Below are positions 17,964-46,221 of a stretch of DNA of 64,000 bases, one piece after another (the first letter of the stretch is position 1; each line of letters opens with the position of its first letter). Origin of the DNA: Candidatus Omnitrophota bacterium (GTDB lineage: Bacteria; Omnitrophota; Gorgyraeia; Gorgyraeales; Gorgyraeaceae); contig JAHIYJ010000090.1 of assembly GCA_018814825.1 (NCBI GenBank), forward strand, positions 1,321 to 65,320, in the 5' to 3' direction. The notes beneath the pieces are model-generated. The model was not told the DNA's origin. It saw only the letters and a program-made list of their open reading frames with translations, and ran no database searches. A program made the translations under genes and the position numbers.

Positions 17964-17964
17964 T

Positions 17965-17985: not shown

Positions 17986-17987
17986 AA

Positions 17988-19835: not shown

Positions 19836-19845
19836 GGATACATAA

Positions 19846-21438: not shown

Positions 21439-21448
21439 AGGGGCTGGG

Positions 21449-26051: not shown

Positions 26052-27110
26052 ATGAAGAAGGCAAAAAAAATTTTCAGAAAGGACAATTTTAAGCTTCGCC
26101 TTGCAGTTATATTACCCTTATTGTTTGTCATTTTGATCTCCGGTTATGGGATAGCTGTTTTCTATAATCTGTCGCATTTTTTTAATTCACCAAAGGCGAT
26201 TTTTAACCCACGCATATACCTCATTATCACTATAATTAGCTCTTTTTGTATCGGGTTAGCCCTGACTTATGCAATACTCATGCCCATAAGGAGGTTAAGG
26301 CAGATGCTGAAAGATATAGAAAGGAATAATTTTAGTTTAACTAAGCATCCGAACGTTGAACAGGAGATCGAAGAGGTTTTTCAATCATTTGAGCATTTAC
26401 ACTCATCTCTAGAAATCAGGAGAAGACGAGAAGTGCTTCAAAGGCTTGCCTCGCTTGGCCAGCTTGCCGCAGGGGTCGCTCATGAGATTAGGAACCCCCT
26501 TGGCTCTATAAAGGGCCTTATGAATTTAATAGCTGAGAGTTTGCCTGATGGCGATCCGAGAAATGAGTATGCCGAGGTAATATTAAGAGAGGTTGGGCGC
26601 ATGGAAGGCATTATCAATAGATTCTTAAGCGTATCCCCGTCTAAATACATGGAGATAAATCAAGAAGAGATAAATCTGGATTTAATCTTGGACGAGGCTA
26701 TATCTTTGGCAAAACTTAGCTGCTCTCAGACTAACGAGATAGAGATTATTAAAGAAGGTAATCTCGATGTAAATATAATAGGTGACAGGGAAAAATTAGG
26801 CCAGGCCTTATTTAATGTCATACTAAATGCCCATCAAGCTATGCCTAAAGAAGGCGGAACTCTGAGAGTTTCTATTAAAAGATTAGAAGATAATAGTATA
26901 CAAGTGAAATTTTCAGATACGGGGATGGGCATTGCCGAAGAAAATATAGAGAGGATATTCGACCCATTCTATACAAGCAAGGAAGAAGGAGTAGGTTTGG
27001 GCTTGACAATTACACATCAAATTATAACAGCGCATAAAGGTGATATCAGGGTGGAAAGCATCAAAGGTAAGGGATCAGATTTTATTATTTCCCTGCCGGT
27101 TGGAGGTTAA
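26052..27110 (+). CDS. pilS: Membrane sensor histidine kinase, NtrB/PilS-like
   Basis: Two TM segments. H-box LAAGVAHEIRNPLGSIKG, then HATPase_c (DTGMGI, GVGLGL). It sits immediately upstream of a sigma-54 activator. Confidence 0.65.
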   Translation: MKKAKKIFRKDNFKLRLAVILPLLFVILISGYGIAVFYNLSHFFNSPKAIFNPRIYLIITIISSFCIGLALTYAILMPIRRLRQMLKDIERNNFSLTKHPNVEQEIEEVFQSFEHLHSSLEIRRRREVLQRLASLGQLAAGVAHEIRNPLGSIKGLMNLIAESLPDGDPRNEYAEVILREVGRMEGIINRFLSVSPSKYMEINQEEINLDLILDEAISLAKLSCSQTNEIEIIKEGNLDVNIIGDREKLGQALFNVILNAHQAMPKEGGTLRVSIKRLEDNSIQVKFSDTGMGIAEENIERIFDPFYTSKEEGVGLGLTITHQIITAHKGDIRVESIKGKGSDFIISLPVGG

Positions 27111-27112
27111 AA

Positions 27113-28486
27113 ATGAGTAAGGACAGGGTTCTAATAGTGGATGATGACAGATCAATGCGTTTCATGCTTTCCGAGGCACTAAAAAAAGATGGCTACGAGA
27201 TAACGGTTACCCCTGATGCCTTAGAGGCTATTGAAAAAGTCAAAAGCCAAGTTTTTTCTGTAATTATAATGGATATAAAGATGCCAAAGATGAATGGACT
27301 GGATGCGCTTCTGAATATCAGCCATATCAGGCCTTTTATATCTTCAATCGTCCTTACTGCTTATGGCTCGGAGCAGGTAAATTTTAAAGGACTCAAAGAA
27401 TTACCTTTTGCTTATTTTACCAAGCCATTTGATTTAGAGAAACTGCGTTTAACTGTCAGACATGCAGTAGAAAAATATAGGCTGTATGAGGATAAGGCTT
27501 GCCAGAATAATCTTGCCTACAAGGATATTATTGGTGAGAGCGCTGCCATGAGAGAGGTGCGGGATTTTATTGTTAAGGTTTCAGAGACGCCGGTTACCGT
27601 ACTGATTCAAGGAGAGAGCGGCACAGGAAAAGAACTTGTAGCCAGGGCTATACACCTTTGCAGTCCAAGAAGGGATAAACCATTTATACCAATTACCTGT
27701 TCAGCTATCCCTGAAACGCTTTTAGAAAGCGAATTATTTGGTTATAAGAAAGGCGCCTTTACTGATGCCAAAGAATCTAAACCGGGCAAATTTGAATTGG
27801 CAGATGAAGGGACGGTTTTCCTCGATGAGTTTGCAGATATGAGCCCGGCTTTACAAGCAAAACTCCTGAGGGTTCTTGAGCAGAAAGAGCTCGAGGTATT
27901 AGGAGCGGTTAAGCCAGTCAAAGTCGATGTGCGTATAGTTGCCGCTACAAATAAAGATTTGCACACTGAAGTGAGAGAGCAGAGATTCCGAGAGGATCTC
28001 TATTATAGAATAAATATTGCGTCTTTGAATTTACCCCCCTTGCGTCAACGAAAAGGGGATATTCCTCTTCTTTTGGAACATCTTATAGGCAAATTTAATA
28101 AAAAGTTTAATAGGAATATTGAAAGTGTTTCGGTTGAAACATTGGAGTTTCTGATTAATTACAGTTGGCCGGGCAATGTTCGAGAATTAGAAAATATCTT
28201 ACAGCGCTCAATGCTTTTAGAGACAGGGTCTATCCTGACGTATGAAGCCTTAACTTCTTCTCTGAAAAATTTAGAAGACATAACACAGAAGACAAGCCAA
28301 ATGGATTCAACTAGGTTCCTTTCTTTAAAACAGGCCGTGAAGCAGTCTGCCTATAAAATTGAAAAGGAAATGATCCAGAAATGCCTTATAAAGCATAATA
28401 TGAACCGTAACCTTGTCAGCAGAGAGCTGAAGATAAGTCGAAAGACACTCTATAGTAAGATGAAAGAACACGGACTTTATAGTTAA
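27113..28486 (+). CDS. pilR: Sigma-54-dependent response regulator (NtrC/PilR family: REC + AAA+ + Fis-type HTH)
   Basis: REC domain (LIVDDDRSMR..IIMDIKMPKMNG). Walker A GESGTGKE. GAFTDA is the sigma-54 contact motif. The C-terminal HTH is present. Confidence 0.85.
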   Translation: MSKDRVLIVDDDRSMRFMLSEALKKDGYEITVTPDALEAIEKVKSQVFSVIIMDIKMPKMNGLDALLNISHIRPFISSIVLTAYGSEQVNFKGLKELPFAYFTKPFDLEKLRLTVRHAVEKYRLYEDKACQNNLAYKDIIGESAAMREVRDFIVKVSETPVTVLIQGESGTGKELVARAIHLCSPRRDKPFIPITCSAIPETLLESELFGYKKGAFTDAKESKPGKFELADEGTVFLDEFADMSPALQAKLLRVLEQKELEVLGAVKPVKVDVRIVAATNKDLHTEVREQRFREDLYYRINIASLNLPPLRQRKGDIPLLLEHLIGKFNKKFNRNIESVSVETLEFLINYSWPGNVRELENILQRSMLLETGSILTYEALTSSLKNLEDITQKTSQMDSTRFLSLKQAVKQSAYKIEKEMIQKCLIKHNMNRNLVSRELKISRKTLYSKMKEHGLYS

Positions 28487-28678: not shown

Positions 28679-28694
28679 TTGGCACGATTTTTGC
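28679..28694 (+). promoter_or_regulatory. Sigma-54 (-24/-12) promoter TGGCACG-attt-TTGCT
   Basis: TTGGCACGATTTTTGCTT matches YTGGCACGrNNNTTGCW, with 10 nt between GG and GC. It lies 32 nt upstream of the pilA ATG. pilR and rpoN are both in this window. Confidence 0.8.
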
Positions 28695-28725
28695 TTATAA
28701 TTATAGTAAAAAGGAGGTGATATTT

Positions 28726-29061
28726 ATGAACAAGAAAGGTTTTACGTTAATTGAATTGATTATGGTCATCGTTATACTTGGTATCTTGGCAGCTGTAGCT
28801 ATCCCTAAATTTGTAGGGCTGCAGGATGAAGCCAAGCAGGCAAGCTGCGATGGAAATTTGGCCGCAGTCAGGTCAGCTCTATCTGCTTATTATGCTGTAA
28901 CAGCAGTTAGGATCGGCACAGCAACATTTCCAAGCGCGCTTACTAACACAACATTTACAGACAACTATTTTACAGAGCAGACATTGCCTGTTTGTCCGTT
29001 TGGCTCAACATGGAGCTACAACTCTGCGACCGGCGCAGTAAGCGGTCATGGCCACACATAG
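28726..29061 (+). CDS. pilA: Short type IVa major pilin (PilA-like)
   Basis: MNKKG|FTLIELIMVIVILGILAAVAIPKF, 111 aa. The C-terminal third is Ser/Thr-rich. The RBS AGGAGGTG precedes it. The listed 28717 start is a GTG inside the RBS. Confidence 0.8.
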   Translation: MNKKGFTLIELIMVIVILGILAAVAIPKFVGLQDEAKQASCDGNLAAVRSALSAYYAVTAVRIGTATFPSALTNTTFTDNYFTEQTLPVCPFGSTWSYNSATGAVSGHGHT

Positions 29062-29155
29062 TATGAATAGGACTTAACAAGCAGTATGATTTTACGATGG
29101 GGGAGAAAGAAAGGGGATAAACAAAGCCTTCGTTCTCCCCCTGTTTTTATGGCCT

Positions 29156-30307
29156 ATGGATAATAAGATAAATATTTTTTCTATCTTCGCAATTATATTA
29201 TTGGGCGTCATAATCTATTCTAATGCCCTGAAAGGTCCTTTTGTCTATGATGATTTTCACAGCATAACAGATAATCCCTATATAAAACAACCGAGTCTTC
29301 TTTCTTCCCTGTTCGATCTCTCTTATGTAACTCATCCATCTCAGGCAAGATCAATATACCGTCCAGTGTTGATGTTTACATTTTTTTTAAACTATGCATT
29401 TGGCAGTTTTAACCCCATAGGCTATCATTTAGTAAATATTTTTCTGCATATCATGAATGGATTCCTGGTCTTTTTCCTGATAAAGGAACTTTTAGGGCCG
29501 GCGTATATTTTTAGAGAGAGGATTGCCTTATTTTCTGCCCTGATTTTTATCAGTCACCCCGTACAAACTGAAACCGTAAATTATATTATCTGCCGCTCAG
29601 AGTTATTGGCCGGATTTTTTCTTCTTTTATCTTTCTCTCTTTATATAAAGGCAGTGCGCTCTACGAAAGAAAGGTATAGTTTTTATAGAGCTTCTCTTAT
29701 TGCCTTTGGCCTCGGGCTTTTGTCCAAAGAGACGGCTCTTATGCTGCCCCTAATAATCTTTTTCTACGAATGCCTGTTTATTGGTTGGAAAAATTTTAAG
29801 GAATTCCTATGGCGGTTAAAAAGATACTATTCTTTTTTTGCTGTTATGGCCGTCATATATATCCTTTTACGGACGTTTCTATTAGGGAATTTTTTGGGGA
29901 AGTTGAGCATAAGTTCTCCGGTGAGGCCCCTTTTTATAAATCTCCTGACCCAAGCCAAGGTATGTGTTTTTTATTATCTTCGGCTGCTCTTTTTCCCATT
30001 CGGACTTTCTATCGATCACTATGTCCCTGTAGCTAAGCCTATTTTTGAATTCCCTGTTTTAATGTCTATTATTTTAATCATTATTCTTTTAGCCTCTGCT
30101 TTTATACTGCGGCGCAAGAATAAAGCTGTATCATTTTTTATTCTTTGGTTTTTCATTAACCTTATCCCAACAGGCATTATTCCTCTGCACATTATTATGA
30201 ATGAACACAGACTTTACCTTTCTACCGTTAGTTTCGGTTTTCTTGTTTCCTTGGCCTTGATAAGCGCCCCCGTCCTAAAAAAAAACCGCAATTTCTTAGT
30301 CAGTTGA
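29156..30307 (+). CDS. TMTC-like (PMT_2/DUF1736) GT-C glycosyltransferase, membrane domain; apparently split from its TPR domain
   Basis: GPFVYDDFHSITDNP and YRPVLMFTFFLNYAFGSFNPIGYHLVNIFLHIMNGFLVFF match the GFVWDD / YRPL..LSF..GYHL.N..LH signature of TMTC-like O-mannosyltransferase-like proteins. About 10 TM segments. Confidence 0.6.
   Translation: MDNKINIFSIFAIILLGVIIYSNALKGPFVYDDFHSITDNPYIKQPSLLSSLFDLSYVTHPSQARSIYRPVLMFTFFLNYAFGSFNPIGYHLVNIFLHIMNGFLVFFLIKELLGPAYIFRERIALFSALIFISHPVQTETVNYIICRSELLAGFFLLLSFSLYIKAVRSTKERYSFYRASLIAFGLGLLSKETALMLPLIIFFYECLFIGWKNFKEFLWRLKRYYSFFAVMAVIYILLRTFLLGNFLGKLSISSPVRPLFINLLTQAKVCVFYYLRLLFFPFGLSIDHYVPVAKPIFEFPVLMSIILIIILLASAFILRRKNKAVSFFILWFFINLIPTGIIPLHIIMNEHRLYLSTVSFGFLVSLALISAPVLKKNRNFLVS
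30277..30285. repeat. A9 homopolymer 20 nt before the stop of the TMTC-like membrane-domain ORF
   Basis: An A10 tract would read ..LKKKPQFLSQLIPSLCVIFF.. and fuse 29156..30307 in-frame to 30304..31095. Confidence 0.7.
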
Positions 30308-31095
30308 TTCCCAGTCTATGCGTAATCTTTTTTTCTGTATTAACGCTAAACAGAAACCCCTATTGGCAGGATGGGATTGAGCTCTGGAAGGCATCTGTTA
30401 AGGTAACGCCCTATTCTAATCGCAGTCATCATAATCTGGGTATAGAATATCTTAAAAAAGAGAGATATGGCGAGGCAGAAGAAGAATTTAAAGAGGCTAT
30501 AAGGCTAAAGCCGGATTATTATTATGCCTATGCCTGCCTGGGTTATCTGTATCATAAGAAAGGTGATTACGGGAAGGCGATAGAGTGTTATCGCTATAGC
30601 CAGAAACTTCAGCCAAATTTGTTTATTACCTTTTATCTCTCAGGAAATATTTATGACGATGAAGGGAAGATTGATGAGGCTATAATCGAGTATCAGAAAG
30701 CCCTTTGGCTTAATCCGGATTTCGGGATGGGGCATTTTCGGCTGGGAGTGCTTCTTGACAAAAAGAGATTTTATTCTGATGCAGAAGCTGAGTATAAAAG
30801 GGCGATATACCTTGACCATAAGATCCCTGAGGCACATTATAATTTAGGCATTATTTACGGTAAACAGGGTAATGCCCTTGCAGTTGAGGAATTCAGAAAG
30901 GCGATAAAGATAAACCCAGGATACCCTGAGGCACATTATAATTTGGCCATAACTTACGCCGCCCTGATGCCCCCAGATCTTAGACTGGCCCGAGAACATT
31001 TCGACAAGGCAAGAGAATTAGGTTATAATGTCGATGAGGGATTGGTGGATACCTTGTTAAATTTTAATGACAAAGATGAAGACAAAAGGCCTTAA
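30304..31095 (+). CDS. TPR-repeat domain, probable C-terminal part of the TMTC-like glycosyltransferase; as annotated it has a TTG start overlapping the upstream stop by 4 nt
   Basis: A last TM helix (IPSLCVIFFSVLTL) is followed by RNPYWQDGIELWKASVKVTPYS..NLG and at least 5 TPR units. Confidence 0.55.
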   Translation: MIPSLCVIFFSVLTLNRNPYWQDGIELWKASVKVTPYSNRSHHNLGIEYLKKERYGEAEEEFKEAIRLKPDYYYAYACLGYLYHKKGDYGKAIECYRYSQKLQPNLFITFYLSGNIYDDEGKIDEAIIEYQKALWLNPDFGMGHFRLGVLLDKKRFYSDAEAEYKRAIYLDHKIPEAHYNLGIIYGKQGNALAVEEFRKAIKINPGYPEAHYNLAITYAALMPPDLRLAREHFDKARELGYNVDEGLVDTLLNFNDKDEDKRP

Positions 31096-31795
31096 TGCCG
31101 GTTTTCTAATTCTTGCATCTCTTCTTGTATTATTTTCATATCTCTCTATAAAGAGGAATATTATCTGGAGTGACCCGCTCAAGATATGGGAAGAAGCAGT
31201 GAGGCTCTCGCCATACTCTAGCATGGCTCATTATAACTTGGGTATAGTTTTAGATAAGGATGGACAGCTGGATCTGGCCATGGAGGAATTTCAGGAGGCA
31301 ATAAGGCTTAACCCTTCACATGCCCTTGCCCATACCTCCTTAGGGGTTGCCTATAACCAGAAAGGCCTTTTGGATTTAGCAATAGAAGAACATAAAAAAG
31401 CCATACTTTTAGATCCGGATCTGTCAGAGGCCTATAATAATTTAGGCCTTGCTTTCTCAGCGAGTTCTCAGTTTAATGAGGCCATTGAAAACTACAAGAT
31501 AGCATTGGGGTTAAATCCGTGGCTGCTGGAGGCCTATAACAATATAGGCATTGCTTACAGAAAGAACATGATGTTTAAAGAGGCTTTAGAAACCTACGAA
31601 AAGGCAATAACGATTGATCCAGGCTTTAGTGCGGCTTATAATGGTATTGGCGTCGTGTATACCAATCTGGGCAATTTTAAAGAGGCAGAATACTGGTTTA
31701 GAAAGACGATCGAGATATCGCCTGAAAGCAAGGCTGCTCAGCTCGCAGCTGATAATTTAGCCCGTCTTGATATATTGTTAAAAACCGGATATTGA
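31067..31795 (+). CDS. Membrane-anchored TPR-repeat protein, paralog of the preceding TPR segment
   Basis: A TM helix (FLILASLLVLFSYL) is followed by IWSDPLKIWEEAVRLSPYSSMAHYNLG and 5 to 6 TPRs. Confidence 0.55.
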   Translation: MTKMKTKGLNAGFLILASLLVLFSYLSIKRNIIWSDPLKIWEEAVRLSPYSSMAHYNLGIVLDKDGQLDLAMEEFQEAIRLNPSHALAHTSLGVAYNQKGLLDLAIEEHKKAILLDPDLSEAYNNLGLAFSASSQFNEAIENYKIALGLNPWLLEAYNNIGIAYRKNMMFKEALETYEKAITIDPGFSAAYNGIGVVYTNLGNFKEAEYWFRKTIEISPESKAAQLAADNLARLDILLKTGY

Positions 31796-32655
31796 AAGGA
31801 GGTATTGTGGCCAGGATAAGCATTGTCATCCCTGCATATAATGAGGAGGCTTCCATCAAACAGGTGTTGATGGGGCTGAAGAAACTGGATAATGATTATG
31901 AGGTTATTGTGGTTGATGATGGCTCAAAAGATAATACTTATTCTCTGGTAAAGGAGTCGGGGGTGAAGGTGATCCGCCATCCTTACAATAAGGGTTATGG
32001 AGCAGCAATTAAAACTGGAACGAAAGTGGCTGGTTCTGAGATAGTGTTTTTGATGGATGCCGACACACAGCATAATCCCGCGGACATCCCGCGGCTTTGT
32101 GAATACATGGAAGAATTTGACATGGTCGTGGGCCAGAGGAGTAAGGGCTCAAAGGCCCCATTGGCACGCAGGCTTGGTAAGTGGGCCTTAAAAAGGGCCG
32201 CTGTTTTTTTGGCAAGGATGGATATCCCTGATTTAAACTCAGGATTCAGGGTAGTTAAAAAAGAGGTTATCCTGAAATTTATGCATATTCTGCCAGATAC
32301 ATTTTCTCTTTCGACCACTTTAACTTTGGCAGTCATAAAAGGAGGGTATACAATTAAGTATGTCCCGATAACCACAAAAAAGAGGGTTGGTAAGAGTTCA
32401 CTAAACCTCTTTAGGGATGGCTATAGGACTATACTTTTAATATTATCAACCATTGCCCTTTTTGACCCATTAAGGGTATTTACTCCTTTGGCGATCAGCC
32501 TCTTTATTCCCGGATCCATCTACACCGGCTATCAATTGGTCTTTTTCCACAATGTCCCTGATTCAGGGATCTTACTGGTTATCTCCGGCATGTTAATCTT
32601 TTTTTTCGGAATATTGGCAGAGCAGATTAGTCAGATGAGACGTCAGATGAGATGA
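31792..32655 (+). CDS. GT2-family polyprenyl-phosphate sugar synthase-like glycosyltransferase (DPM1/ArnC/GtrB-like) with C-terminal TM helices
   Basis: ISIVIPAYNEEASI..YEVIVVDDGSKDNT and a DAD motif (LMDADTQH). Two C-terminal TM segments. Confidence 0.7.
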   Translation: MKGGIVARISIVIPAYNEEASIKQVLMGLKKLDNDYEVIVVDDGSKDNTYSLVKESGVKVIRHPYNKGYGAAIKTGTKVAGSEIVFLMDADTQHNPADIPRLCEYMEEFDMVVGQRSKGSKAPLARRLGKWALKRAAVFLARMDIPDLNSGFRVVKKEVILKFMHILPDTFSLSTTLTLAVIKGGYTIKYVPITTKKRVGKSSLNLFRDGYRTILLILSTIALFDPLRVFTPLAISLFIPGSIYTGYQLVFFHNVPDSGILLVISGMLIFFFGILAEQISQMRRQMR

Positions 32656-34064
32656 AGGCACTGTTAATTTACCCGCCCAAGCAGCACATGATCAAGACAA
32701 ACGTCCCTGAATTTGTTGATAAGGAGACAGGTTCATACCCGCCGTTAGGGCTTTTGTACATAGCCGGTTTTATTCAAAGGAACAGCAGTCACGAGGTCGA
32801 GGTTTTGGATACACAGGCTGAGGGATTGGATTATGTGCAGATCGAAGAAAAGATAAGAGAAAAAAGACCTGATATTGTGGGAATACAGGTCTTTACCTTT
32901 ACCCTCATAGATGCTATCCTGACTGCTGAAACAGTCAAGAAGGTGAGCAATAATATCCTGGTATGTTTTGGAGGGCCACATGTGAATATATATCCTGAAG
33001 AGACGATAAATATCCCTGAAGCCGACTTTCTTATTATGGGAGAGGGTGAGATCAGGTTTACGAGACTACTGGATGCCTTAGATAAAAGAGAAGGATTGAT
33101 GGATATAGATGGGATCATTTTTAAGGATAATTCCAGGATTATCAGGACGCCTCTAAGAGGATATATTGAAGATCTGGATTCCATTCCTTTTCCAGCCCGC
33201 AGACTCAGCCCGTATAAAAAATATTACTCCTTGCTGGCTAAACAGACGCCTGTTACCACGATGATAACATCCCGAGGCTGTCCATTCAGGTGTCTTTTTT
33301 GCGGCCGCCCGCACCTCGGAAAAAAGTTCCGTGCCAGGTCTGCCGCTAATGTGGTGGATGAGATAGAGGATTCTCTAAAGATAGGGATACGGGAATTCTT
33401 TTTTTATGACGACACATTTTCAGTAAATAGGGATAGGGCCTACGATATCTGTGACGAGATTTTAAAGAGGGGCCTGGAGGTCAGCTGGGATGTACGCACA
33501 CGCATTGATACAGTGGACGAGGGGCTGTTGAAGAGATTGAAAAAAGCAGGCTGTGAAAGGATACATTATGGAGTTGAGGCAGGAACAAAGGAGATATTAA
33601 ATGTTTTATGTAAAGATATCGATCTTAAAAAGGCAAAGGAGATTTTTAAAAAAACAAAGGATTTAGGGATAACTACTCTGGCCTATTTTATGATCGGTTC
33701 GCCTACGGAAACAAAAGACCAGATATTAAGGACAATAGATTTTGCAATCGAACTGGATCCTGATTTCGTTCATTTTTCTATTACCACGCCATTCCCTGCA
33801 ACCGAACTATATCGCCTCGGCCTGGAAAGAGGGGTTTTAAAAAAAGACTACTGGAGAGAATTTGCTTCAGAACCTAAAAAAAATTTTATCCCTGAGATGT
33901 GGGAAGAAAACCTCTCACGGGATGAGCTATCCGCATTATTAAAGTTTGCCTATAAGCGATTCTATGCCAGGCCCTGTTATATCATGAAAGAATTGGCCAA
34001 GGTCAGAGATGTCAGGGAATTATTGAGAAAGATAAAGGCTGGATTAAATGTAATCAAGAGTTAG
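32652..34064 (+). CDS. B12-binding-domain radical SAM enzyme (class B rSAM), copy 1
   Basis: N-terminal B12-binding Rossmann segment (PPLGLLYIAGFI..DIVGIQV). rSAM cluster MITSRGCPFRCLFCG. 470 aa. Confidence 0.7.
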   Translation: MKALLIYPPKQHMIKTNVPEFVDKETGSYPPLGLLYIAGFIQRNSSHEVEVLDTQAEGLDYVQIEEKIREKRPDIVGIQVFTFTLIDAILTAETVKKVSNNILVCFGGPHVNIYPEETINIPEADFLIMGEGEIRFTRLLDALDKREGLMDIDGIIFKDNSRIIRTPLRGYIEDLDSIPFPARRLSPYKKYYSLLAKQTPVTTMITSRGCPFRCLFCGRPHLGKKFRARSAANVVDEIEDSLKIGIREFFFYDDTFSVNRDRAYDICDEILKRGLEVSWDVRTRIDTVDEGLLKRLKKAGCERIHYGVEAGTKEILNVLCKDIDLKKAKEIFKKTKDLGITTLAYFMIGSPTETKDQILRTIDFAIELDPDFVHFSITTPFPATELYRLGLERGVLKKDYWREFASEPKKNFIPEMWEENLSRDELSALLKFAYKRFYARPCYIMKELAKVRDVRELLRKIKAGLNVIKS

Positions 34065-34066
34065 AA

Positions 34067-35494
34067 ATGAATATCGTCTTAATCAATGTCCCTTATTTAG
34101 AGGTATACGGTAAGTTAAACGTAGGAAAGAATTCAAGCTTTCCTTTGGGTTTGGGCTATATCGCCGCGGTTTTAAGACAGGCAGGGTATAATGTTAATTT
34201 GCTTGATCCAGAGCCGCAGGGAATGGACTTAATTAATATAAGGGCATATCTTCTGCAAAAGAGGCCTGATATGGTGGGCCTTTCCTGCGCTACAGCAAAC
34301 TTTAAGAATGCTTTAGCTATTGGGGCCATTGTCAAAGAAGCAATAGGCGTTACAGTAGTTCTTGGGGGGGTGCATGCCTCGGCATTACCCAGAGAAATTT
34401 TAAGTAACTTTTCCCAATTTGATTTTTTAGTAATCGGCGAGGGCGAAGAGACAATAGTCGGGCTTGCTGCTTTTTTGGAGAGCGGCTATGGAAGCCTGGA
34501 TGATATAAGGGGCATTGCCTATAGAAAAGACAAGATGATTAAACTAACAGCGCCGAGGCCTTTTATGTCCATAGAAAAGTTGGCAGAGCTCCCTTTTCCA
34601 GCAAGGGATTTGGTTGATATCAGCCTGTACCGTCCCCAGGCGCATTTGGATCGCGGTAAACCTGCGGCAAGCATGATTACCTCCAGGGGTTGTCCTGCCA
34701 GATGCACTTTTTGCGCATCTTACCTGACGACTGGATATGCCTTTCGCTGGCGCAGTCCTGAAAGTGTGGTCAGGGAAATCGAGGATTTGGTTTATAATTA
34801 TAGGATAGAACACATTATATTTGTAGATGATACATTTACTTTTCTTGAGGATAGGGCAAAAAAGATTTGCCAGCTTATTTTAGAAAAAGGCCTTGAGATT
34901 GACTGGTATTGCTTTGCCCGCGCAGACAAGGTTTCAGAGGAACTGCTGTTAGCAATGAAACAGGCAGGCTGCTTCAGTCTTTTATTTGGCGTAGAATCCG
35001 GGGATGAAGACATATTGAGGAATATTAAGAAAGGGATAACTCCCCAACAGTCTAAACAGGCATTGGATACGGCAAATAGAATGGGATTTAAGACCTTGGC
35101 AGGGTTTATGTTCGGTAATCCTGGCGAGACGCCTGAGACTGCGAAAAAAACACTGGATTTTGCTGTAGAACTTAATCCAACCATCGCTTCTTTTAATATC
35201 CTGGTGCCGTATCCAGGGACAGAGGTATTTAAAACGCATTACAGGGAGAGGTTTAAAGATCCTGCAACCTGGGATAGTTTTTTGCCCAGGGCAGTAGAAC
35301 CAGTTGCTGAAACAGAGGCCCTTACGAATAAAGATTTGACGCGCTGGGCTTCCTGGGCCTTTATAAGATTTTATGCGTTACGTCCTTGGCATGTTCTGGG
35401 TATGCTGAGGAAGATAAAGACATGGGGAGAGATCAAGTCTTATCTAAGAGGTGCATGGGGTTTGACGCAGAGGATCTGGGAGTGGAGAAAATGA
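34067..35494 (+). CDS. B12-binding-domain radical SAM enzyme (class B rSAM), copy 2
   Basis: FPLGLGYIAAVL..DMVGLS and MITSRGCPARCTFCAS. 475 aa. Paralogous to the preceding gene. Confidence 0.7.
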   Translation: MNIVLINVPYLEVYGKLNVGKNSSFPLGLGYIAAVLRQAGYNVNLLDPEPQGMDLINIRAYLLQKRPDMVGLSCATANFKNALAIGAIVKEAIGVTVVLGGVHASALPREILSNFSQFDFLVIGEGEETIVGLAAFLESGYGSLDDIRGIAYRKDKMIKLTAPRPFMSIEKLAELPFPARDLVDISLYRPQAHLDRGKPAASMITSRGCPARCTFCASYLTTGYAFRWRSPESVVREIEDLVYNYRIEHIIFVDDTFTFLEDRAKKICQLILEKGLEIDWYCFARADKVSEELLLAMKQAGCFSLLFGVESGDEDILRNIKKGITPQQSKQALDTANRMGFKTLAGFMFGNPGETPETAKKTLDFAVELNPTIASFNILVPYPGTEVFKTHYRERFKDPATWDSFLPRAVEPVAETEALTNKDLTRWASWAFIRFYALRPWHVLGMLRKIKTWGEIKSYLRGAWGLTQRIWEWRK

Positions 35495-36165
35495 TGACGG
35501 TAAAACAATTCCAGACGCACCAGAAACGTTATTGGGAAAGAAATGGCTTGGCAAAGAGAAGGCACCCTGCGCATCCTGTGATAGAAGCATATGTCCTCCC
35601 AAAGATTAACATTCTGCGCAGTTACGTTGACCTAAAACCCGAGACTCGACTTTTGGATGTTGGCTGCGGCAATGGCTTTTTTACTTTCTACTTTGACAAG
35701 ATCTGCAATGCTTATGGCATAGACTATTCTGAGATAATGTTACAGATGAACCCTGTTAAAAAGACCTCCATTATGAATGCCAGTGACTTGAGATTTGAAG
35801 ACAATTCATTCGACGCAGTCTTCTGCCATGCCTTGTTACACCATGTCGATGATATTGATAGAGTAATACAGGAGATGAGACGTGTTTCCAGAAGATATGT
35901 AATAATCCTTGAGCCAAACAGAAATAACCCTTTGATGTTTTTGTTTTCACTGCTAGTCAAGGAAGAAAGGCAGGCTATAAGGTTTTCACTGCCATATCTG
36001 ATAAGGGCACTCAATAGGAATGCCTTATCTGTCATAGCCTCTTTTTCATACGGCATGATTGCGCCTAATAAAACACCGGCATTTTTTATTCCATTGGCAG
36101 GCTTGTTCAATTTCAAGCATCCACTGGGAATCACAAATTTCATAATAGCGGAAAAGTTGCAATAG
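35491..36165 (+). CDS. Class I SAM-dependent methyltransferase
   Basis: LLDVGCGNGFFTFYF is the SAM-binding motif I. ATG 35491 overlaps the upstream stop (ATGA). The listed 35386 start is an in-frame upstream extension inside the preceding gene. Confidence 0.65.
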   Translation: MMTVKQFQTHQKRYWERNGLAKRRHPAHPVIEAYVLPKINILRSYVDLKPETRLLDVGCGNGFFTFYFDKICNAYGIDYSEIMLQMNPVKKTSIMNASDLRFEDNSFDAVFCHALLHHVDDIDRVIQEMRRVSRRYVIILEPNRNNPLMFLFSLLVKEERQAIRFSLPYLIRALNRNALSVIASFSYGMIAPNKTPAFFIPLAGLFNFKHPLGITNFIIAEKLQ

Positions 36166-36257: not shown

Positions 36258-36782
36258 TTGTTTATGATGCGAAGGGGATTTACTATTATCGAACTTATAA
36301 TGGTGATGGTGATTATCGCCATTTTGGCAGTAATTGCCATACCTAGGTTTGAGAGTTTTTATGAGATAAAATTAAGAGGCACGGCAAATAGACTGGTTTT
36401 AGATATTAGGTATGCCCAAAGGGTGGCGATCTCCGAACATGAAAGCTATGGCTTGGAGTTTGATGCTGCAAACGAGAGATATCGGGTATACCAAGTGTCA
36501 ACAGATTTGCCAGCCAGAGATCCTTTGACTCGATCGACAGGCACGGCGCAATGGAACGGCGGCCTTGTTTTAGACTATAATTCAGATTCAGAATATGGCG
36601 GCATTGACCTGACTTCTGCTAATTTTAATGGAACAGACAGGCTGCGCTTTACTTCCTTAGGTGTCCCTCAAGATGCGAATGGCACTAACCTTAGTTCGAT
36701 AGGGACAGTATCTATTTCTTATGAGGGATCGAGCGAGACAGTCAATGTCACGCCTAATACAGGAAAAGTGACCCTACAATGA
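36258..36782 (+). CDS. Minor pseudopilin, GspH/FimT-like
   Basis: MFMMRRG|FTIIELIMVMVIIAILAVIAIPRF is followed by ..LVLDIRYAQRVAISE.. 174 aa. Confidence 0.6.
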   Translation: MFMMRRGFTIIELIMVMVIIAILAVIAIPRFESFYEIKLRGTANRLVLDIRYAQRVAISEHESYGLEFDAANERYRVYQVSTDLPARDPLTRSTGTAQWNGGLVLDYNSDSEYGGIDLTSANFNGTDRLRFTSLGVPQDANGTNLSSIGTVSISYEGSSETVNVTPNTGKVTLQ

Positions 36783-37264
36783 GACAGGAAGCAGGTATTA
36801 CCTTGATCGAACTGGTCTTAATTATTGTCCTTATCGGATTGGTCGTGCCGCCATTATTAACTGTATTTTCTGATATCACCAGAAGGAGTGCCCAGGCAGA
36901 ACTCATCTCTACGGCCAATGCTTTAACAAGGAGCTTGCTGGAAGAGATTGTTAGCAAGAAATATGATGAAAAGAATTCTTCTCCATGGAGCAATCCTTTA
37001 GGCGCTGATTCCGGGGAGACAAACCGGGATGCTTACGATGATGTCGATGATTTCGATGGATTTTCAGAGCCTTCTGTTCCTGGTTTTCCTGGTTTTTCCA
37101 GGAGTGTTACGGTTTATTACGTCAATCCCGACAGTTCTAATTTAGATACCCCTCAACCAGACTCCTGCAACACGTTGGATTATAAACGCGTAGATGTTAC
37201 AGTCAATCATCAATTAATAGGGGATTTAAAAATGTCTTCTATTGTTTCAAGGAGCCATTTTTGA
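36779..37264 (+). CDS. Minor pseudopilin, GspI/PilV-like
   Basis: MRQEAG|ITLIELVLIIVLIGLVV..AQAELISTANALTRSLLEEI. Confidence 0.55.
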   Translation: MRQEAGITLIELVLIIVLIGLVVPPLLTVFSDITRRSAQAELISTANALTRSLLEEIVSKKYDEKNSSPWSNPLGADSGETNRDAYDDVDDFDGFSEPSVPGFPGFSRSVTVYYVNPDSSNLDTPQPDSCNTLDYKRVDVTVNHQLIGDLKMSSIVSRSHF

Positions 37265-37265
37265 T

Positions 37266-37757
37266 ATGAATAAAGGCTTTACAATTATTGAATTAATCAT
37301 GGTGATTGTCATAGCAGGCGTATTGACAGCTGGAACAGCGCCGTATATTAATGCAGTGATAGAACGCTGGCAATTTTTGCAGTTTCGCAATGAAGCAGGG
37401 ACGCAGGCAAGGAATGCGCTTGATTGGATGGTCAGAGAGATAAGAGAGGTAAAGGACAACAATAGTTTTGATATTGCTGATAGCTCTCGGCTTAAATTTA
37501 CCAATAGCAGTGATATCTCCATTGACTATACTCTATCGGGTAATACGCTTATGCGTAACAGCGATGCATTGGTAAGCGGCGTAAATAGCCTGCAGTTTGA
37601 ATATAGAAACGTCCAGAATAACATTATGAGTTCTTTGCCTCTTTCCTCAGGACAGAGAAAACAGATATGGCGTATTAGGGTAATCTTGACACTGAGTAGC
37701 GGAGGAGAAACCCTGACCCTGGAAACCGATATCTTTCCTCGGAATCTGGGAAGTTGA
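37266..37757 (+). CDS. Minor pseudopilin, GspJ/PilW-like
   Basis: MNKG|FTIIELIMVIVIAGVL..NALDWMVREIREV. ATG 37266 is used. The listed 37242 start lies inside the previous gene. Confidence 0.55.
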   Translation: MNKGFTIIELIMVIVIAGVLTAGTAPYINAVIERWQFLQFRNEAGTQARNALDWMVREIREVKDNNSFDIADSSRLKFTNSSDISIDYTLSGNTLMRNSDALVSGVNSLQFEYRNVQNNIMSSLPLSSGQRKQIWRIRVILTLSSGGETLTLETDIFPRNLGS

Positions 37758-37760
37758 AAA

Positions 37761-38114
37761 ATGAAGAGACTATTTAAGGATTCAGATGGCGCAGCCTTAG
37801 TAATAATTGTGTTTGCAATGCTTGTTTTTGCAATGCTTGGAGCTGTTATTGCTTCGATGCAGTCTAGCTATTATGAAACATCTCGAACACACCTCCGTTC
37901 AAACCAGGCTTTTTTTATCTCAGATAGTGGTATGGAGAGAGGAAAGGAATTATTGAATGATAGTTTAGGCTCTTGGCGTCCGCCTGACCCTCCGGGCTAC
38001 TTAAGGGAATATATGACTGTGGGCGGAACCTTGGGCCACTACGATATCTACGTTGAAAGTGCTGGCGGGGGCAGTGTAAGACTGATAGTAGAAAGCGAAA
38101 TGAATGCAGAATAG
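37761..38114 (+). CDS. Short GspK/PilX-N-like minor pseudopilin (no Glu5)
   Basis: GAALVIIVFAMLVFAMLGAVIASM..QAFFISDSGMERG follows the PilX_N pattern. 117 aa. Confidence 0.5.
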   Translation: MKRLFKDSDGAALVIIVFAMLVFAMLGAVIASMQSSYYETSRTHLRSNQAFFISDSGMERGKELLNDSLGSWRPPDPPGYLREYMTVGGTLGHYDIYVESAGGGSVRLIVESEMNAE

Positions 38115-38290: not shown

Positions 38291-39868
38291 ATGAAGCTAA
38301 AAATACAATTGATTGTATGCACAATAATTGTTTCGGCATTTATTTTTATAGAGGCACAAGTTCAAGCTCAAGAGGCACGAAAGGTTTCTCTGGCAGGAAG
38401 AAAGATTTTAGTAAGCGAGGAATTACTCCCTTACTTGGGAGCCTTGACTTTTATTGTTCCGCAAGAAGCTGAACACCCGCGCCCTAAAGTTCATGGGATG
38501 GCCAAGAGCGCTGATCTGTCACGTATCAATGGTTATAATCATTCGCTCGAAGGAGAACCTGTTGGTTCTGGTGCAGCTATAGGCGGCCTACCAGGCATTG
38601 CTACCAATGCTAGAGAAAAAGAGCTTTCTGTGCACCGGGTCGTGGTAACAGGTGACCCAGTACCCATAAAAGATGAAATAGACTATATTGATATCCCTGT
38701 CCTGGTCGATTACCTTAAAGAACAAGCTGATATTACAATAACGCAGGATACGGTCTATAAAGGAGGCAATATAGGCACCAAAGAGGATCCTAAGATCGTT
38801 GTAGTCAATGGTTCGAGGCTTAAGCTCATGCATGACTTCGAAGGTTATGGTATTCTCATACTTACAGGAGAGAGGACAGATAATCCGCGCTGGGATGACG
38901 AATCTGAAGAAGACGATATTGATGCCGAAAAAAGCACATTATACCAGGTTATCCGTAAAATAGGCGACGAACTGGATCTTGACTTTCCTCGTGAACAGCG
39001 TGTGAAGAGAAGATTAAGGCTGGTTATGGAAGATACATCTTCGTGGTATGGGATGATTATCTCTGATATCGGCTCTGAAACACTCATAGAAACTGATATA
39101 GATAGAGAGATCAATGTCCATGAGCGCCGGATAAATGACCTTAAGAAAGGCCGCAGGAATGATTCTGAAGACGAAAGAAAACTGCGTGATAGATGGGAGA
39201 GAGAGGAAAGAGAATCTCCTTCCAGGCAAAGGGAATCTTCGAACAGGTCTTTTAGAGAATTGTTCGCGCGGTTATTCGATGTCCAGCTTGCCTATGCTGA
39301 AGATAAAGATGACGATAAAGCCAAAGAGGAAAAAGATAAAAAGGAAAAGAAACACTTTATAGTTTACCCTAAAAAAGAGATAAAATACCATAAACCGGTA
39401 TGGCATCGCCATGGGGCCAAAGGTGTAGTGATGATCTTAGGAAGGCAGCATGGCTATTGGCACCCGCCCTATCCATGGCCTGTTATAGAGGAGGATATGG
39501 TTCCTGATTCTCCAAGGTATAAATGGATACATAAGTTAAAATCTTCCTCAATGGATTACTGGAATAAGTGGAGAGATTTTATGTCAAGGCCTGCTTATGC
39601 AAAGAACGACAAGGATGAGGACGAGGATAAAGATAAAGATAAAGACAAAGAAAAAGAAGGCAAGAGTGAAAAGAAAGTGCCGCGTAGATCCGAAGCAAAA
39701 CCTGGAGACGGCGTCAGGGTGTATGGGGCAATGCTTATAGGTGGTGAAAGGCCAATGGTTATCATGAAACTCGCTGATGTTTTTTATTCGAAAGAGGCCA
39801 TTGATATGGTGGATAAAAAACTTTCGAGTCTGCGCTTTACCTGGAGTGAATATAAAGAAGAAGAATAA
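38291..39868 (+). CDS. Secreted protein with highly charged K/D/E low-complexity tracts, function unknown
   Basis: Signal peptide (LIVCTIIVSAFIFIEAQVQA). Tracts DKDDDKAKEEKDKKEKK and DKDEDEDKDKDKDKEKEGKSEKK. 525 aa. It sits directly after an H/I/J/K minor-pilin set. Confidence 0.5.
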   Translation: MKLKIQLIVCTIIVSAFIFIEAQVQAQEARKVSLAGRKILVSEELLPYLGALTFIVPQEAEHPRPKVHGMAKSADLSRINGYNHSLEGEPVGSGAAIGGLPGIATNAREKELSVHRVVVTGDPVPIKDEIDYIDIPVLVDYLKEQADITITQDTVYKGGNIGTKEDPKIVVVNGSRLKLMHDFEGYGILILTGERTDNPRWDDESEEDDIDAEKSTLYQVIRKIGDELDLDFPREQRVKRRLRLVMEDTSSWYGMIISDIGSETLIETDIDREINVHERRINDLKKGRRNDSEDERKLRDRWEREERESPSRQRESSNRSFRELFARLFDVQLAYAEDKDDDKAKEEKDKKEKKHFIVYPKKEIKYHKPVWHRHGAKGVVMILGRQHGYWHPPYPWPVIEEDMVPDSPRYKWIHKLKSSSMDYWNKWRDFMSRPAYAKNDKDEDEDKDKDKDKEKEGKSEKKVPRRSEAKPGDGVRVYGAMLIGGERPMVIMKLADVFYSKEAIDMVDKKLSSLRFTWSEYKEEE

Positions 39869-40373: not shown

Positions 40374-40631
40374 ATGACAATAGAAAAAAACATATTGACA
40401 ATTGATGAGGTATCTAAGTTATTCAGCCTTTCTAAAGCAAGCATTAACTATTATATCAATATGGGGCTGATCGATGTATCCATGCGCAGGGGGAATAAGC
40501 GTTTTTTTGAATATGATATAATTAAGCATCGCATGAATACGATACAGCAATTGCAAGAAAAAGGTTTCTTACTGCGCCAGATCAAGGAAAAGATAATGCA
40601 GGAGAAATACAGGGAAGTCTCGCCGCGATGA
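40374..40631 (+). CDS. Small MerR-type HTH DNA-binding protein
   Basis: LTIDEVSKLFSLSKASINYYINMGLI matches the MerR N-terminal HTH. 85 aa. It overlaps the start of the downstream mshI-like gene by 4 nt. Confidence 0.55.
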   Translation: MTIEKNILTIDEVSKLFSLSKASINYYINMGLIDVSMRRGNKRFFEYDIIKHRMNTIQQLQEKGFLLRQIKEKIMQEKYREVSPR

Positions 40632-42361
40632 AAAAACAAACCTTATTTCAGAGACCTTTATTTCATACACTGTTATTAGATAACCTGAAGACTTGCCTTA
40701 AGAGCATAGGTGTGGTAACGGGTTTGGATATAGGGGCTTCTTCCTTGAAGATTGTCGAGCTCAAAAAGACAAGAGAGGGATTTAGCGTAAACAATTTTGT
40801 CTTTGACGTTATACCTGCTTCTGTAAGGGCTGATGATAAGGAGCTCGCGCAGTTTATTATCAATAGTATAAGAGAGGCAGTAAGACAGGATAAGCTTATG
40901 ACTAGGGGGGGGTTTTTAGCCTTGAGCGGCAAAGAGGTAAAGATCTTTTCGCTGACCTTTCCTAAAATAGCCAGACGTGACTTGAAGAATGCCATCCCGC
41001 TTGAGATCAAAAAACAGATGGTATTTGACCCTAAAAAGAGCTTTTTTGACTTTCAGGTTTCTTCTGAGTTTTCTGATCGCACTGGGCCAAAATTACAGAT
41101 CATTGCCGCAGTAGCAGATAGGAATGTCGTGCAAGAAAAAATAGATATTTTGCAGAAGGCTGGTATACGGCCTTTGGGCATAAGTATCATCCCTAATGCG
41201 TTGGGCAGTGTGCTGGAGAGGATAAGCGGGATTAATCCTGAAGAGGTAGTTTCTGTATTAGATATGGGCGCCAAGTTTACTGCCTTATGCATATTTAAAG
41301 GATCTAAATTGGAATTCAGCAGGGATATTCCGGTCGGAGGAGATCATCTAACCCAGGGATTAGTAAGAAAGATAACCCTGCCAGACAGGGAGATTAATAT
41401 TACCCTTGAACAGGCAGAGATAATCAAGAAGGAATGCGGCATACCCAGAAAGGAAGAATTGGAGCAAAGCGTAGGCCCCTTGTCAAAATCGCATATACTG
41501 GCTATAATGAAACCGACCTTAGAACGCTTGACCAGTGACATCCTGCGTTCAATCAATTATTACCGCCAGTATTTTAAGATACCGAAGATTGATAGGCTAT
41601 TGCTTAGCGGGGGCGGCTCGAGACTCAAGAACATAGAAGAATTTTTATCAACGAACTTAAAAGATATAAAGGTTGATAGGCTTAATCCGTTAGCGACAGT
41701 GGCAGTATGGACAGACAAGGGAGTTTCAAATCAGGAGTTATTAGAGGAATTGGCGCCGCATCTCAGTGTTGGGTTTGGCCTGGCCTTTGGGAAAAAGGGC
41801 GCAAAAGTAGACCTTTTGCCTTTTGAGACAAGGCTTCAACAAAAAGTTGAAACAGTAAAATTTATACTTAAAACCACAGTCCCTGTTGTTACTGCAGTTA
41901 TTTTTCTTTTATATGTTGCCTTTTCTGCCCAATCTTCTCATTATCGCAGGCTTATTACGCAGGCCAAGGCATCCTTAGAATCATTTGAGTCGACAAGACA
42001 GTCTATTAATGAATACGATGCGTTAAAAGAGAGAATGGAGCAGAGAAAAAACCTTCTGGAAAAGGCCGTGGGCAGGCAGCCTCTTTGGCGCGGGGTTCTA
42101 AAGGAGTTAGGGCGGGTTGGACCCGAAGGCATAACCTTGCATAGATTAGCTGTAGTAAAAGGTCAAAGTCCTATTAAGCTGAGATTAAATGGGGAGATAG
42201 TACCTTCTTATACAAGCATAGACCTGGTACTTTCACAGTATCTTATGGCGCTGGATGAATCGCCCTTTTTTGAGAACGTAGAGCTGGTCTCTCAGGTACG
42301 GGATGCATATTCATCCACGCCAAAAGCAAGATTTGAGATTATGCTTAAATTGGTGTATTAG
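40628..42361 (+). CDS. PilM-PilN fusion (MshI-like), copy 2
   Basis: The actin-like N-terminal domain (VTGLDIGASSLKIVEL) is followed by a TM segment and a PilN-like domain. 577 aa. Confidence 0.7.
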   Translation: MKKQTLFQRPLFHTLLLDNLKTCLKSIGVVTGLDIGASSLKIVELKKTREGFSVNNFVFDVIPASVRADDKELAQFIINSIREAVRQDKLMTRGGFLALSGKEVKIFSLTFPKIARRDLKNAIPLEIKKQMVFDPKKSFFDFQVSSEFSDRTGPKLQIIAAVADRNVVQEKIDILQKAGIRPLGISIIPNALGSVLERISGINPEEVVSVLDMGAKFTALCIFKGSKLEFSRDIPVGGDHLTQGLVRKITLPDREINITLEQAEIIKKECGIPRKEELEQSVGPLSKSHILAIMKPTLERLTSDILRSINYYRQYFKIPKIDRLLLSGGGSRLKNIEEFLSTNLKDIKVDRLNPLATVAVWTDKGVSNQELLEELAPHLSVGFGLAFGKKGAKVDLLPFETRLQQKVETVKFILKTTVPVVTAVIFLLYVAFSAQSSHYRRLITQAKASLESFESTRQSINEYDALKERMEQRKNLLEKAVGRQPLWRGVLKELGRVGPEGITLHRLAVVKGQSPIKLRLNGEIVPSYTSIDLVLSQYLMALDESPFFENVELVSQVRDAYSSTPKARFEIMLKLVY

Positions 42362-42363
42362 AA

Positions 42364-42918: not shown

Positions 42919-42930
42919 GAAGGCAGAAAG

Positions 42931-43428: not shown

Positions 43429-43429
43429 A

Positions 43430-44866: not shown

Positions 44867-44893
44867 TATTGGCAGAGCCTTAAAATTAAGGAG

Positions 44894-46219: not shown

Positions 46220-46221
46220 GC

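Follow-up and report, generated by a model that had tools for sequence, protein, structure and literature searches.

A TMTC/TfpW-like glycosyltransferase and a radical SAM donor module behind pilA in an Omnitrophota type IV pilus cluster: a candidate pilin-glycosylation cassette

What could be the substrate of a seven-gene operon that combines glycosyltransferases with radical S-adenosylmethionine (SAM) enzymes and directly follows a type IV pilin gene, pilA, in Candidatus Omnitrophota? This question is raised by a 64-kb stretch of DNA from such a bacterium (hereafter the window). The organization of the locus points to a pilin-accessory cassette of the kind known from Pseudomonas, and pilin glycosylation is, from gene context, the best-supported hypothesis; we lean slightly towards the pilin being the acceptor. 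The general design, that of TfpW-type pilin-accessory cassettes, is known already. Two elements are new: a radical SAM-tailored donor module, which proves to be a widespread and uncharacterised cassette of bacteria and archaea, and a conserved run of nine adenines (A9) at the junction between the reading frames of a GT-C glycosyltransferase and of a tetratricopeptide repeat (TPR) module.

The locus reads, on the forward strand, as two histidine kinases, pilR, a sigma-54 element, pilA, a hairpin and the seven-gene operon (29156-36165; Table 1), and all the genes named in an initial annotation of this DNA were indeed found on that strand. The promoter proposed there for pilA, TGGCACGATTTTTGC, matches the -24/-12 consensus exactly and ends 31 nt before the pilA ATG; only one other exact match exists in the 64 kb, while six matches are found when one mismatch is permitted, against 2.5 expected. 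Both the corresponding activator, PilR (Response_reg, Sigma54_activat and HTH_8 domains), and rpoN are encoded in the window, in line with the same annotation. The operon genes overlap their neighbours by 4 to 29 nt or sit 2 nt apart, which suggests that all seven are translationally coupled; the tight same-strand packing first described thus stands, with seven genes and not eight. Their products are a GT-C core, a protein with a transmembrane (TM) helix and TPR repeats, a paralog of the latter, a GT2 glycosyltransferase, two radical SAM enzymes with B12 domains and a SAM methyltransferase. The cassette sits within a complete type IV pilus cluster that comprises pilMNOPQ, pilB and pilC, with pilA on its 5' side and minor pilins on its 3' side. 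A recent horizontal insertion of the cassette is not indicated, its composition being without clear anomaly.

The 94 nt between pilA and the GT-C gene hold an intrinsic-terminator-like hairpin with a fold energy of -29.1 kcal/mol (z = -2.35), and an equivalent hairpin with a U-tract is found 3' of pilA in two related loci, L010 and L001. Rho-independent terminators 3' of the pilin gene, which attenuate the accessory genes, are common in the cassettes of P. aeruginosa (PMC11841053). The pilin itself was rightly described as short, but it is not of the truncated Geobacter type; its mature form comprises 106 residues with a conserved pair of cysteines, and its orthologues in L010, L001 and L080 are 66-86% identical. 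The Ser/Thr enrichment ascribed to its C-terminal third was also recovered, at a moderate level (11 of the last 36 residues). As a separate observation, an H-x-H end is conserved in all four aligned PilA orthologues (HGHT, HSHT, HAH, HSHV; 29035-29058 in the window), just after a variable Ser/Thr cluster (NSAT, STTT, DSSL, NTTT), and could form a metal-binding tail beside the likely glycosylation region.

Such an arrangement has a precedent. In P. aeruginosa group IV strains (Pa5196/PA7), the gene immediately 3' of pilA encodes TfpW, which counts 646 residues and combines 11 TM helices with a TPR domain on the periplasmic side. This protein is needed for moving D-arabinofuranose, made as a polyprenyl-phosphate sugar, to Ser/Thr of the pilin; its periplasmic loops 1 and 4 bear a DDx and a Y-x6-PF-x7-P motif, respectively, and certain species have the donor genes close to pilA-tfpW, in one cluster (bioRxiv 10.1101/2020.04.19.049825). 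Homologues of TfpW are present in Azotobacter, Acinetobacter, Teredinibacter and Kingella. As TfpW is itself a GT-C with 11 TM helices and TPR repeats, the view that pilin O-glycosylation does not use enzymes resembling the eukaryotic O-mannosyltransferases TMTC1-4 has to be abandoned, and the novelty claimed for the locus on these grounds was overstated. The likeness to TfpW, which is drawn from its published description (architecture, motifs and gene position), concerns a GT-C that would, if the two reading frames are fused, have about 11 TM helices and a C-terminal TPR domain, the predicted fusion in the window also counting 646 residues; a GT-C gene 3' of a pilA under PilSR and sigma-54, past a terminator, in a pilA-GT-C order that recurs in L010 and L080; a DD motif, accompanied by a Y-x6-PF-x8-P motif that resembles the one of TfpW but has a spacing one residue longer than its x7; and a polyprenyl-phosphate monosaccharide as donor, as proposed for the window. 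By contrast, the TfpW donor is made via DPPR synthase, DprE1/DprE2 and a GtrA-like protein, whereas the window offers a GT2, two B12-radical SAM enzymes and a methyltransferase, and neither DPPR synthase nor DprE1/DprE2 was among the Pfam and NCBIfam matches of the seven cassette proteins. The window also differs by its TPR module, placed in another frame behind the A9 run, by its extra stand-alone TM-TPR paralog and by its phylum.

The linkage of pilA to this GT-C is conserved among close relatives. All GT-C relatives at least 45% identical for which upstream DNA was available follow a sigma-54 pilA (L010, L080 and L001), while, of the more distant homologues (below 45% identity), the 68 whose upstream DNA could be inspected all lack a prepilin there; adjacency to pilA in related genomes thus holds for the former and fails for the latter. 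In L010 (GT-C 79% identical), a pilA 86% identical lies directly upstream, with the same promoter and terminator. In L080 (62%), a 119-residue prepilin ends 8 nt before the GT-C. In L001 (47%), pilS, pilR, pilA and a terminator precede a glycosylation island with five GT-Cs, GT2s, a GT9, a methyltransferase and a B12-radical SAM enzyme. L082 has the gene order of the window, at 66-80% identity. In two other phyla, and independently of the window lineage, pilSR, a sigma-54 pilA, a GT-C and a GT2-radical SAM-methyltransferase set are found together, in metagenome-assembled genomes (MAGs) of Desulfobacterota (Ca. Desulfaltia, L152) and of Aminicenantes (L157). The promoter element TGGCACG-N4-TTGCT stands upstream of pilA in L010, L001, L080, L152 and L157.

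The nature of the GT-C core was clear from its fold and motifs. In the Pfam scan, PMT_2 remained below threshold (19.5 bits against a cut-off of 26.1) and DUF1736 gave no match; several homologues do exceed the PMT_2 cut-off. An AlphaFold model of the core, built on 43 homologues, reached a pLDDT of 91.4 and a pTM of 0.92, and its structural matches were GT-C enzymes only, with Foldseek in agreement; the model thus points to the polytopic membrane fold common to ArnT, PglB/AglB/STT3 and PMT. A profile search of the PDB with the GT-C alignment was dominated by TPR matches and was uninformative on the membrane domain. The first periplasmic loop contains FVYDDF (residues 29-34), whose D32 and D33 are shared by at least 90% of the 43 homologues; SIYRP (66-70) and LSKETA (189-194) follow, with R69 and K191 invariant in the family, as are Y274 and P281 in the late-loop motif Y274-x6-P281-F282-x8-P291. 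Conservation of the DD, YRP and KET motifs across the family is at least 90%, and DD, SIYRP and LSKETA correspond to motifs M1 (DD), M2 (SxxSYRP) and M4 (KETxxT) of human TMTC1-4 (PMC7801869). The likeness to TMTC1-4 thus covers the DD, (S)YRP and KET motifs, the polyprenyl-phosphate monosaccharide expected as donor and, in the window only if the open reading frames (ORFs) are fused, 11 TM helices followed by a lumenal or periplasmic TPR domain. The window protein differs in being bacterial, with no DUF1736 match and a sub-threshold PMT_2 score, in an acceptor unrelated to cadherins and in a donor sugar that, in view of the tailoring enzymes, is unlikely to be plain mannose. In another context, L004 (1-17824; ENA ERZ24794640, a 114-kb contig) carries at least eight, probably nine, head-to-tail paralogues of TM + TPR GT-Cs, of 599-715 residues, which suggests a battery of acceptor-specific transferases.

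How the TPR domain is joined to this core brings us to the A9 run; no other stretch of at least nine A or T exists in the window. A -1 shift at this site, or one A added in the mRNA, fuses both ORFs into a protein of 646 residues with GT-C core, TM11 and TPR, the shifted junction reading ...APVLKKKPQFLSQLIPSLCVIFFSVLTLNRNPYWQD... Among the loci fetched, about 60 homologues, the majority, are encoded in one single frame, with 600-670 residues and a TM domain followed by TPR, and are colinear with the shifted product; likewise, the TM11 + TPR ORF is colinear with the C-terminal halves of the fused homologues P0004, P0006 and P0008. This ORF probably encodes the C-terminal portion of the GT-C, made accessible by a frameshift or by slippage. 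The run is conserved in L082, an Omnitrophota MAG with a GT-C 74% identical (A9 at 404-412), and in L080 (1941-1949), with the same frame relation as in the window, although the DNA around it has diverged; the 0-frame ends 4-12 codons past the run. In L162 (GT-C 55% identical), an A7 run lies at the equivalent Leu-Lys-Lys site (about 1194-1200), and the TPR frame is +1, with no start codon from the preceding stop to TM11. An assembly error at the junction was rejected, as the same A9 is present in independent assemblies of other organisms. This conservation suggests a recoding site or a phase-variable tract, giving products of 383 and 646 residues. The flanks of A9 showed no conserved Shine-Dalgarno-like sequence 5' and no conserved structure 3'; with such stimulators not found, a stimulated ribosomal frameshift of the dnaX style is unsupported, and slippage or phase variation is therefore more likely. 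Two products are made in Thermus from dnaX by transcriptional slippage on an A9 run.

Each of the two TPR ORFs of the operon starts with a single TM helix, after which comes an RNxxW...LW motif, KRNIIWSD..LKIWEEA of the stand-alone protein paralleling NRNPYWQD..ELWKAS of the preceding ORF, and the former is, by this resemblance, a paralog of the TM11 + TPR module. One may speculate that it is an alternative, non-fused acceptor-recognition subunit for the core of 383 residues. Alternatively, the TM + TPR proteins could be pilus assembly factors of the PilF/PilW/Tgl type and not enzymes, with the split gene as a decaying pseudogene. That the ORF is interrupted by a frameshift, that both TPR ORFs score, below cut-offs, on the PilW and Tgl models, and that one homologue is named 'Tfp pilus assembly protein PilF' by JGI would agree with this; yet the catalytic DD, YRP and KET motifs show the high conservation noted above, the GT-C fold is modelled with confidence, and other candidates for a PilF/Tgl-type role are encoded by the separate TPR genes farther downstream, at 44894 and 50841. 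Moreover, A9 and both frames are kept across relatives at 62-74% amino acid identity, which would not be expected of a decaying gene, and we regard the assembly-factor explanation as very improbable.

The remaining four genes would supply the donor of the proposed pilin glycosylation. The GT2 gave as best NCBIfam match AglJ, over its full length (E=1e-34) and below the cut-off, with dolichyl-phosphate hexose synthase models also close, and missed all NCBIfam equivalog cut-offs; its closest solved structures are the dolichyl-phosphate mannose synthase of P. furiosus (5mlz, 2.6e-20), ArnC and GtrB, and its C-terminal tail is hydrophobic from about residue 215, as expected of membrane helices. 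Its subgroup placement argues for a polyprenyl-phosphate sugar synthase. The two radical SAM enzymes share 36% identity and carry the CxxxCxxC motif as CPFRCLFC from residue 210 (rSAM1) and CPARCTFC from residue 209 (rSAM2). The domain calls of the initial annotation (TMTC/PMT-clan GT-C, DPM1/GtrB/ArnC-type GT2, class-B-type radical SAM enzymes and class I methyltransferase) were thus upheld by Pfam, NCBIfam, PDB and the structural model, and the true start of the methyltransferase is probably the ATG at 35491.

C-methylation was first raised as a possible chemistry of the radical SAM pair, but its closest characterised relatives do not indicate it. The pair exceeds the trusted cut-off of no known B12-radical SAM family (HpnJ, BchE, HpnR, ladderane, PhpK or GenK-like methylases); the top family matches, HpnJ, BchE and ApyD, are all far under their cut-offs, with 218.7 bits against 577.6 for HpnJ and 217.7 against 481 for BchE, and HpnR (140 against 650) and the ladderane model (151 against 360) were not passed either. 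A hopanoid, ladderane or tetraether-type role was rejected on these scores, so that a known lipid function, named at the outset as grounds for discarding the proposal, did not materialize. The closest solved relative is AprD4, a sugar diol dehydratase, and the closest characterised relatives further include the ring-contraction enzyme HpnJ and the cyclase BchE; with AprD4 and the distant HpnJ, BchE and ApyD as relatives, methylation is therefore just one of several possible chemistries. We found no paper that ties B12-radical SAM enzymes to polyprenyl-phosphate sugar or GT-C systems, and nothing relevant on TfpW together with TMTC.

The partners of rSAM1 in other genomes were more informative. 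Its relatives amount to 590 matched stretches in GTDB representative genomes, and neighbourhoods were taken from the 80 best loci, which are 43-78% identical and almost all from distinct MAGs, a figure of 590 species being approximate. Listed family members are 55-78% identical and of near-identical length, and the family is held by Omnitrophota, phyla of the Candidate Phyla Radiation (CPR), Chloroflexota, Planctomycetota, Elusimicrobiota, Desulfobacterota and Acidobacteriota as well as, among archaea, by DPANN archaea, Promethearchaeota and Methanosarcinales. A GT2 of the window type lies within 6 kb of rSAM1 in 39 of the 80 best loci and immediately upstream in at least 28, so that the adjacency of the two is put at 28-40 of 80 genomes; another B12-radical SAM enzyme is nearby in 19, a methyltransferase in 20 and a protein with at least 8 TM helices in 37. 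The polytopic neighbours, 78 in all, include 34 with PMT_2, 3 TMEM260-like, 3 with PMT and 8 with TPR repeats, PMT_2-type GT-Cs thus being the dominant class. Orthologues of rSAM2 were found in L082 (77% identical), L107 and L128. A GT2 followed by a B12-radical SAM enzyme is thus a highly conserved, uncharacterised module of bacteria and archaea.

As side observations on this family, its members in the sample (loci L082-L161) come from MAGs only, and it spans bacteria and archaea at 45-59% identity, which would imply horizontal spread of a conserved function. A Polysacc_deac_1 (ArnD-type) deacetylase sits between the GT2 and the radical SAM gene in L083 (8344-13966), L007 (9144-14954) and L122, which suggests that the lipid-linked sugar of those lineages is an amino sugar, and the neighbouring GT-C of L083 is TMEM260-like (E=3.5e-46) with TPR repeats.

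These partners also bear on whether the radical SAM enzymes and the methyltransferase might act apart from the glycosyltransferases, on the pilin polypeptide itself, by a C-methylation like that of ribosomally synthesized and post-translationally modified peptides (RiPPs) or by other side-chain chemistry. Several B12-radical SAM families do methylate peptides, the NCBIfam results include distant similarity to ApyD and RiPP C-methyltransferases, and the enzymes would be cytoplasmic, where the N-terminus of the prepilin is accessible. We nevertheless consider this improbable, as the partner of rSAM1 across phyla is a GT2, usually with a 4-nt overlap, including in archaea and in pilin-free loci, as ArnD-type deacetylases in some cassettes indicate a lipid-linked sugar substrate, and as AprD4 acts on a sugar.

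A more serious competitor to the proposed glycosylation of the pilin is that the cassette decorates another acceptor, such as lipopolysaccharide or another glycan, S-layer or secreted proteins, the minor pilins or the product of the 525-residue ORF (Table 1), its adjacency to pilA resulting from co-regulation or from the insertion of an island. Orthologous clusters, whose constant separation from pilins would have spoken for such an acceptor, do lie mostly in surface-glycan loci without a pilin, but L152 and L157 are pilA-linked. Several observations weigh against the pilin at this point. The annotated example cassettes stand in loci with Wzy_C, flippase, Polysacc_synt, ABC2/Wzt and NeuB genes, without pilins, and a pilin or PilSR is found within 10 kb in just about 2 to 5 of the 80 loci, a modest enrichment; the acceptor of the donor cassette is thus not intrinsically a pilin, because the cassette is mostly away from pilins, and also present in archaea and CPR bacteria. 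The pilA-linked lineages may be fairly closely related, and their synteny may then be partly plain inheritance. L080 lacks a terminator after pilA, the GT-C gene of L163 (53% identical) ends at the junction site with loss of the TPR part, the Ser/Thr enrichment of the pilin is only moderate, and no flippase of the GtrA, MATE or ArnEF type is encoded in the cassette, as 29156-36165 is fully taken up by the seven ORFs and no small multi-TM transporter is among their products. The settings of the TPR-GT-C family are moreover many, with tandem arrays of as many as nine paralogues among them, and in the window a terminator parts pilA from the operon. The latter is, however, the normal design of pilin-accessory cassettes (PMC11841053). 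All testable close GT-C relatives follow pilA, the cassette is set between pilA and the minor pilins, and pilA, GT-C and donor cassette are linked independently in two other phyla. We therefore judge another acceptor to be unlikely, if far from negligible.

From a mechanistic point of view, glycosylation of the pilin would proceed as follows; the gene content, folds, motifs, promoter, terminator, synteny and conservation of A9 were observed, whereas we infer the donor and the acceptor, how the steps follow each other and how recoding would occur. PilS/PilR and sigma-54 would drive transcription of pilA, and the terminator 3' of it would let a fraction of the transcripts read into the operon. 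On the cytoplasmic face of the membrane, the GT2 would charge polyprenyl phosphate with a sugar taken from a nucleotide sugar, and the two B12-radical SAM enzymes and the SAM methyltransferase would tailor this lipid-linked monosaccharide, C-methylation, deoxygenation and rearrangement being candidate chemistries. The donor would then be flipped to the periplasm by a flippase encoded outside the cassette, and the TMTC/TfpW-like GT-C, with its TPR domain to recognize the acceptor, would transfer the sugar to Ser/Thr residues, either of the pilin or more broadly of pilus proteins. As the TPR would join the core only with a -1 shift at A9, by slippage or ribosomal frameshifting, or with a change of A9 length in the DNA, the cell should hold both the core of 383 residues and the fused transferase of 646. 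The scheme first proposed, with a polyprenyl-phosphate sugar donor, a periplasmic GT-C and the pilin as acceptor, thus fits the gene context, including the position in the pilus cluster. A broader hypothesis, which we hold only tentatively, is that the coupled GT2 and B12-radical SAM pair, with a second radical SAM enzyme and a methyltransferase, forms a previously unrecognised route that tailors polyprenyl-phosphate monosaccharides by radical chemistry in bacteria and archaea for PMT-clan GT-Cs, and here yields a new pilin O-glycan, with the acceptor-binding TPR attached or omitted through A9 slippage, as two forms or as an on/off switch.

Other known systems share parts of this scheme. The pair of synthase and GT-C is common to the three-component systems (GtrABC; ArnC/ArnD/ArnEF/ArnT; polyprenyl-phosphate pentofuranose, Kelly et al., 2024), and some orthologous cassettes hold an ArnD-type deacetylase, which would act on the lipid-linked sugar; by contrast, the window cassette has no flippase of their kinds, and radical SAM tailoring is without precedent there. 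The succession of a GT2 and a B12-radical SAM enzyme whose substrate is a sugar, anchored to a lipid or part of an aminoglycoside, recalls the HpnI/HpnK/HpnJ hopanoid pathway and AprD4, but the window reaches only 219 bits against 578 on HpnJ, hopanoid genes are absent and the lipid is presumably polyprenyl phosphate. PglL/TfpO (PilO) likewise glycosylates pilins, and tfpO is also directly 3' of pilA; it belongs, however, to the Wzy_C family, with undecaprenyl-diphosphate-linked oligosaccharide donors, and Wzy_C had no Pfam match in any cassette protein.

If correct, these proposals would uncover an unstudied route to unusual sugars, in which radical SAM enzymes modify a monosaccharide on its lipid carrier. 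Hundreds of lineages of uncultured bacteria and archaea would possess this route, and the small pilin of the window offers a concrete, testable acceptor for working out its chemistry. TfpW-type pilin glycosylation, known from a few Proteobacteria, would then extend to Omnitrophota, Desulfobacterota and Aminicenantes, groups whose attachment and whose contacts with hosts or prey probably depend centrally on type IV pili, and the A9 junction would be a new case of recoding or phase variation governing the domain make-up of a glycosyltransferase.

Table 1. Features of the window that are discussed in the text, with their coordinates.
Feature	Position	Strand	Evidence or remark
Two histidine kinases, 5' of pilR	23495-26029; 26052-27110	+	ORF list
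pilR, sigma-54-dependent response regulator	27113-28486	+	ORF; Pfam on the identical protein of L002
pilA promoter, sigma-54 -24/-12 type, TGGCACGATTTTTGC	28680-28694	+	exact consensus
pilA, prepilin of 111 residues	28726-29061	+	N_methyl E=1e-8
Intrinsic-terminator-like hairpin, GGGGGAGAA...UUCUCCCCC then UGUUUUUA	29099-29149	+	between pilA and operon; sequence and fold energy
GT-C glycosyltransferase core, 383 residues, about 10 TM helices (predicted)	29156-30307	+	conserved motifs, AlphaFold model, Foldseek
A9 run, CTA AAA AAA AAC	30277-30285	+	GT-C/TPR junction
TM11 + TPR ORF, 263 residues, TTG start	30304-31095	+	TPR_1, TPR_2, TPR_11, E down to 1e-34
Stand-alone TM-anchored TPR protein, 242 residues	31067-31795	+	TPR_1 E=1e-45
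Putative GT2 polyprenyl-phosphate sugar synthase (DPM1/AglJ/ArnC/GtrB type)	31792-32655	+	Glycos_transf_2 E=2.5e-33
B12-binding radical SAM enzyme 1 (rSAM1), 470 residues	32652-34064	+	Pfam B12-binding PF02310 and Radical_SAM PF04055
B12-binding radical SAM enzyme 2 (rSAM2), 475 residues	34067-35494	+	PF02310 and PF04055
Class I SAM methyltransferase, 224 residues from an ATG overlapping the preceding stop	35491-36165	+	Methyltransf_11 E=4e-20; gene call in L002
Four minor-pilin-like genes (one GspH/FimT-like and three more)	36258-38114	+	N_methyl and GspH matches, prepilin motifs; directly 3' of cassette
ORF of 525 residues without family match	38291-39868		no Pfam match
rpoN	56132-57457		

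Beyond the cassette, Rfam gave no family match anywhere in the window, and no riboswitch therefore appears to control the cassette. The second exact sigma-54 consensus, TGGCACAGTTGTTGC at 19418-19432, lies within or at the end of an ORF (18627-19766), about 410 nt 5' of the first PilMN gene (19846). Pilus or type II secretion machinery is encoded by two separate gene sets, one at 13660-21958, with GspE/F/G-like genes together with PilMN and PilO, and one at 40628-50814, with PilMN, PilO, a PilP-like protein, a secretin, a PilB-like ATPase, an AAA_22 protein and PilC; genes for PilZ-domain proteins lie at 22605 and 53187. The 525-residue ORF occupies the usual position of PilY1, after the minor pilins, and its product combines an N-terminal signal-like segment with long acidic/basic low-complexity stretches (KDEDEDKDKDKDKEKE).

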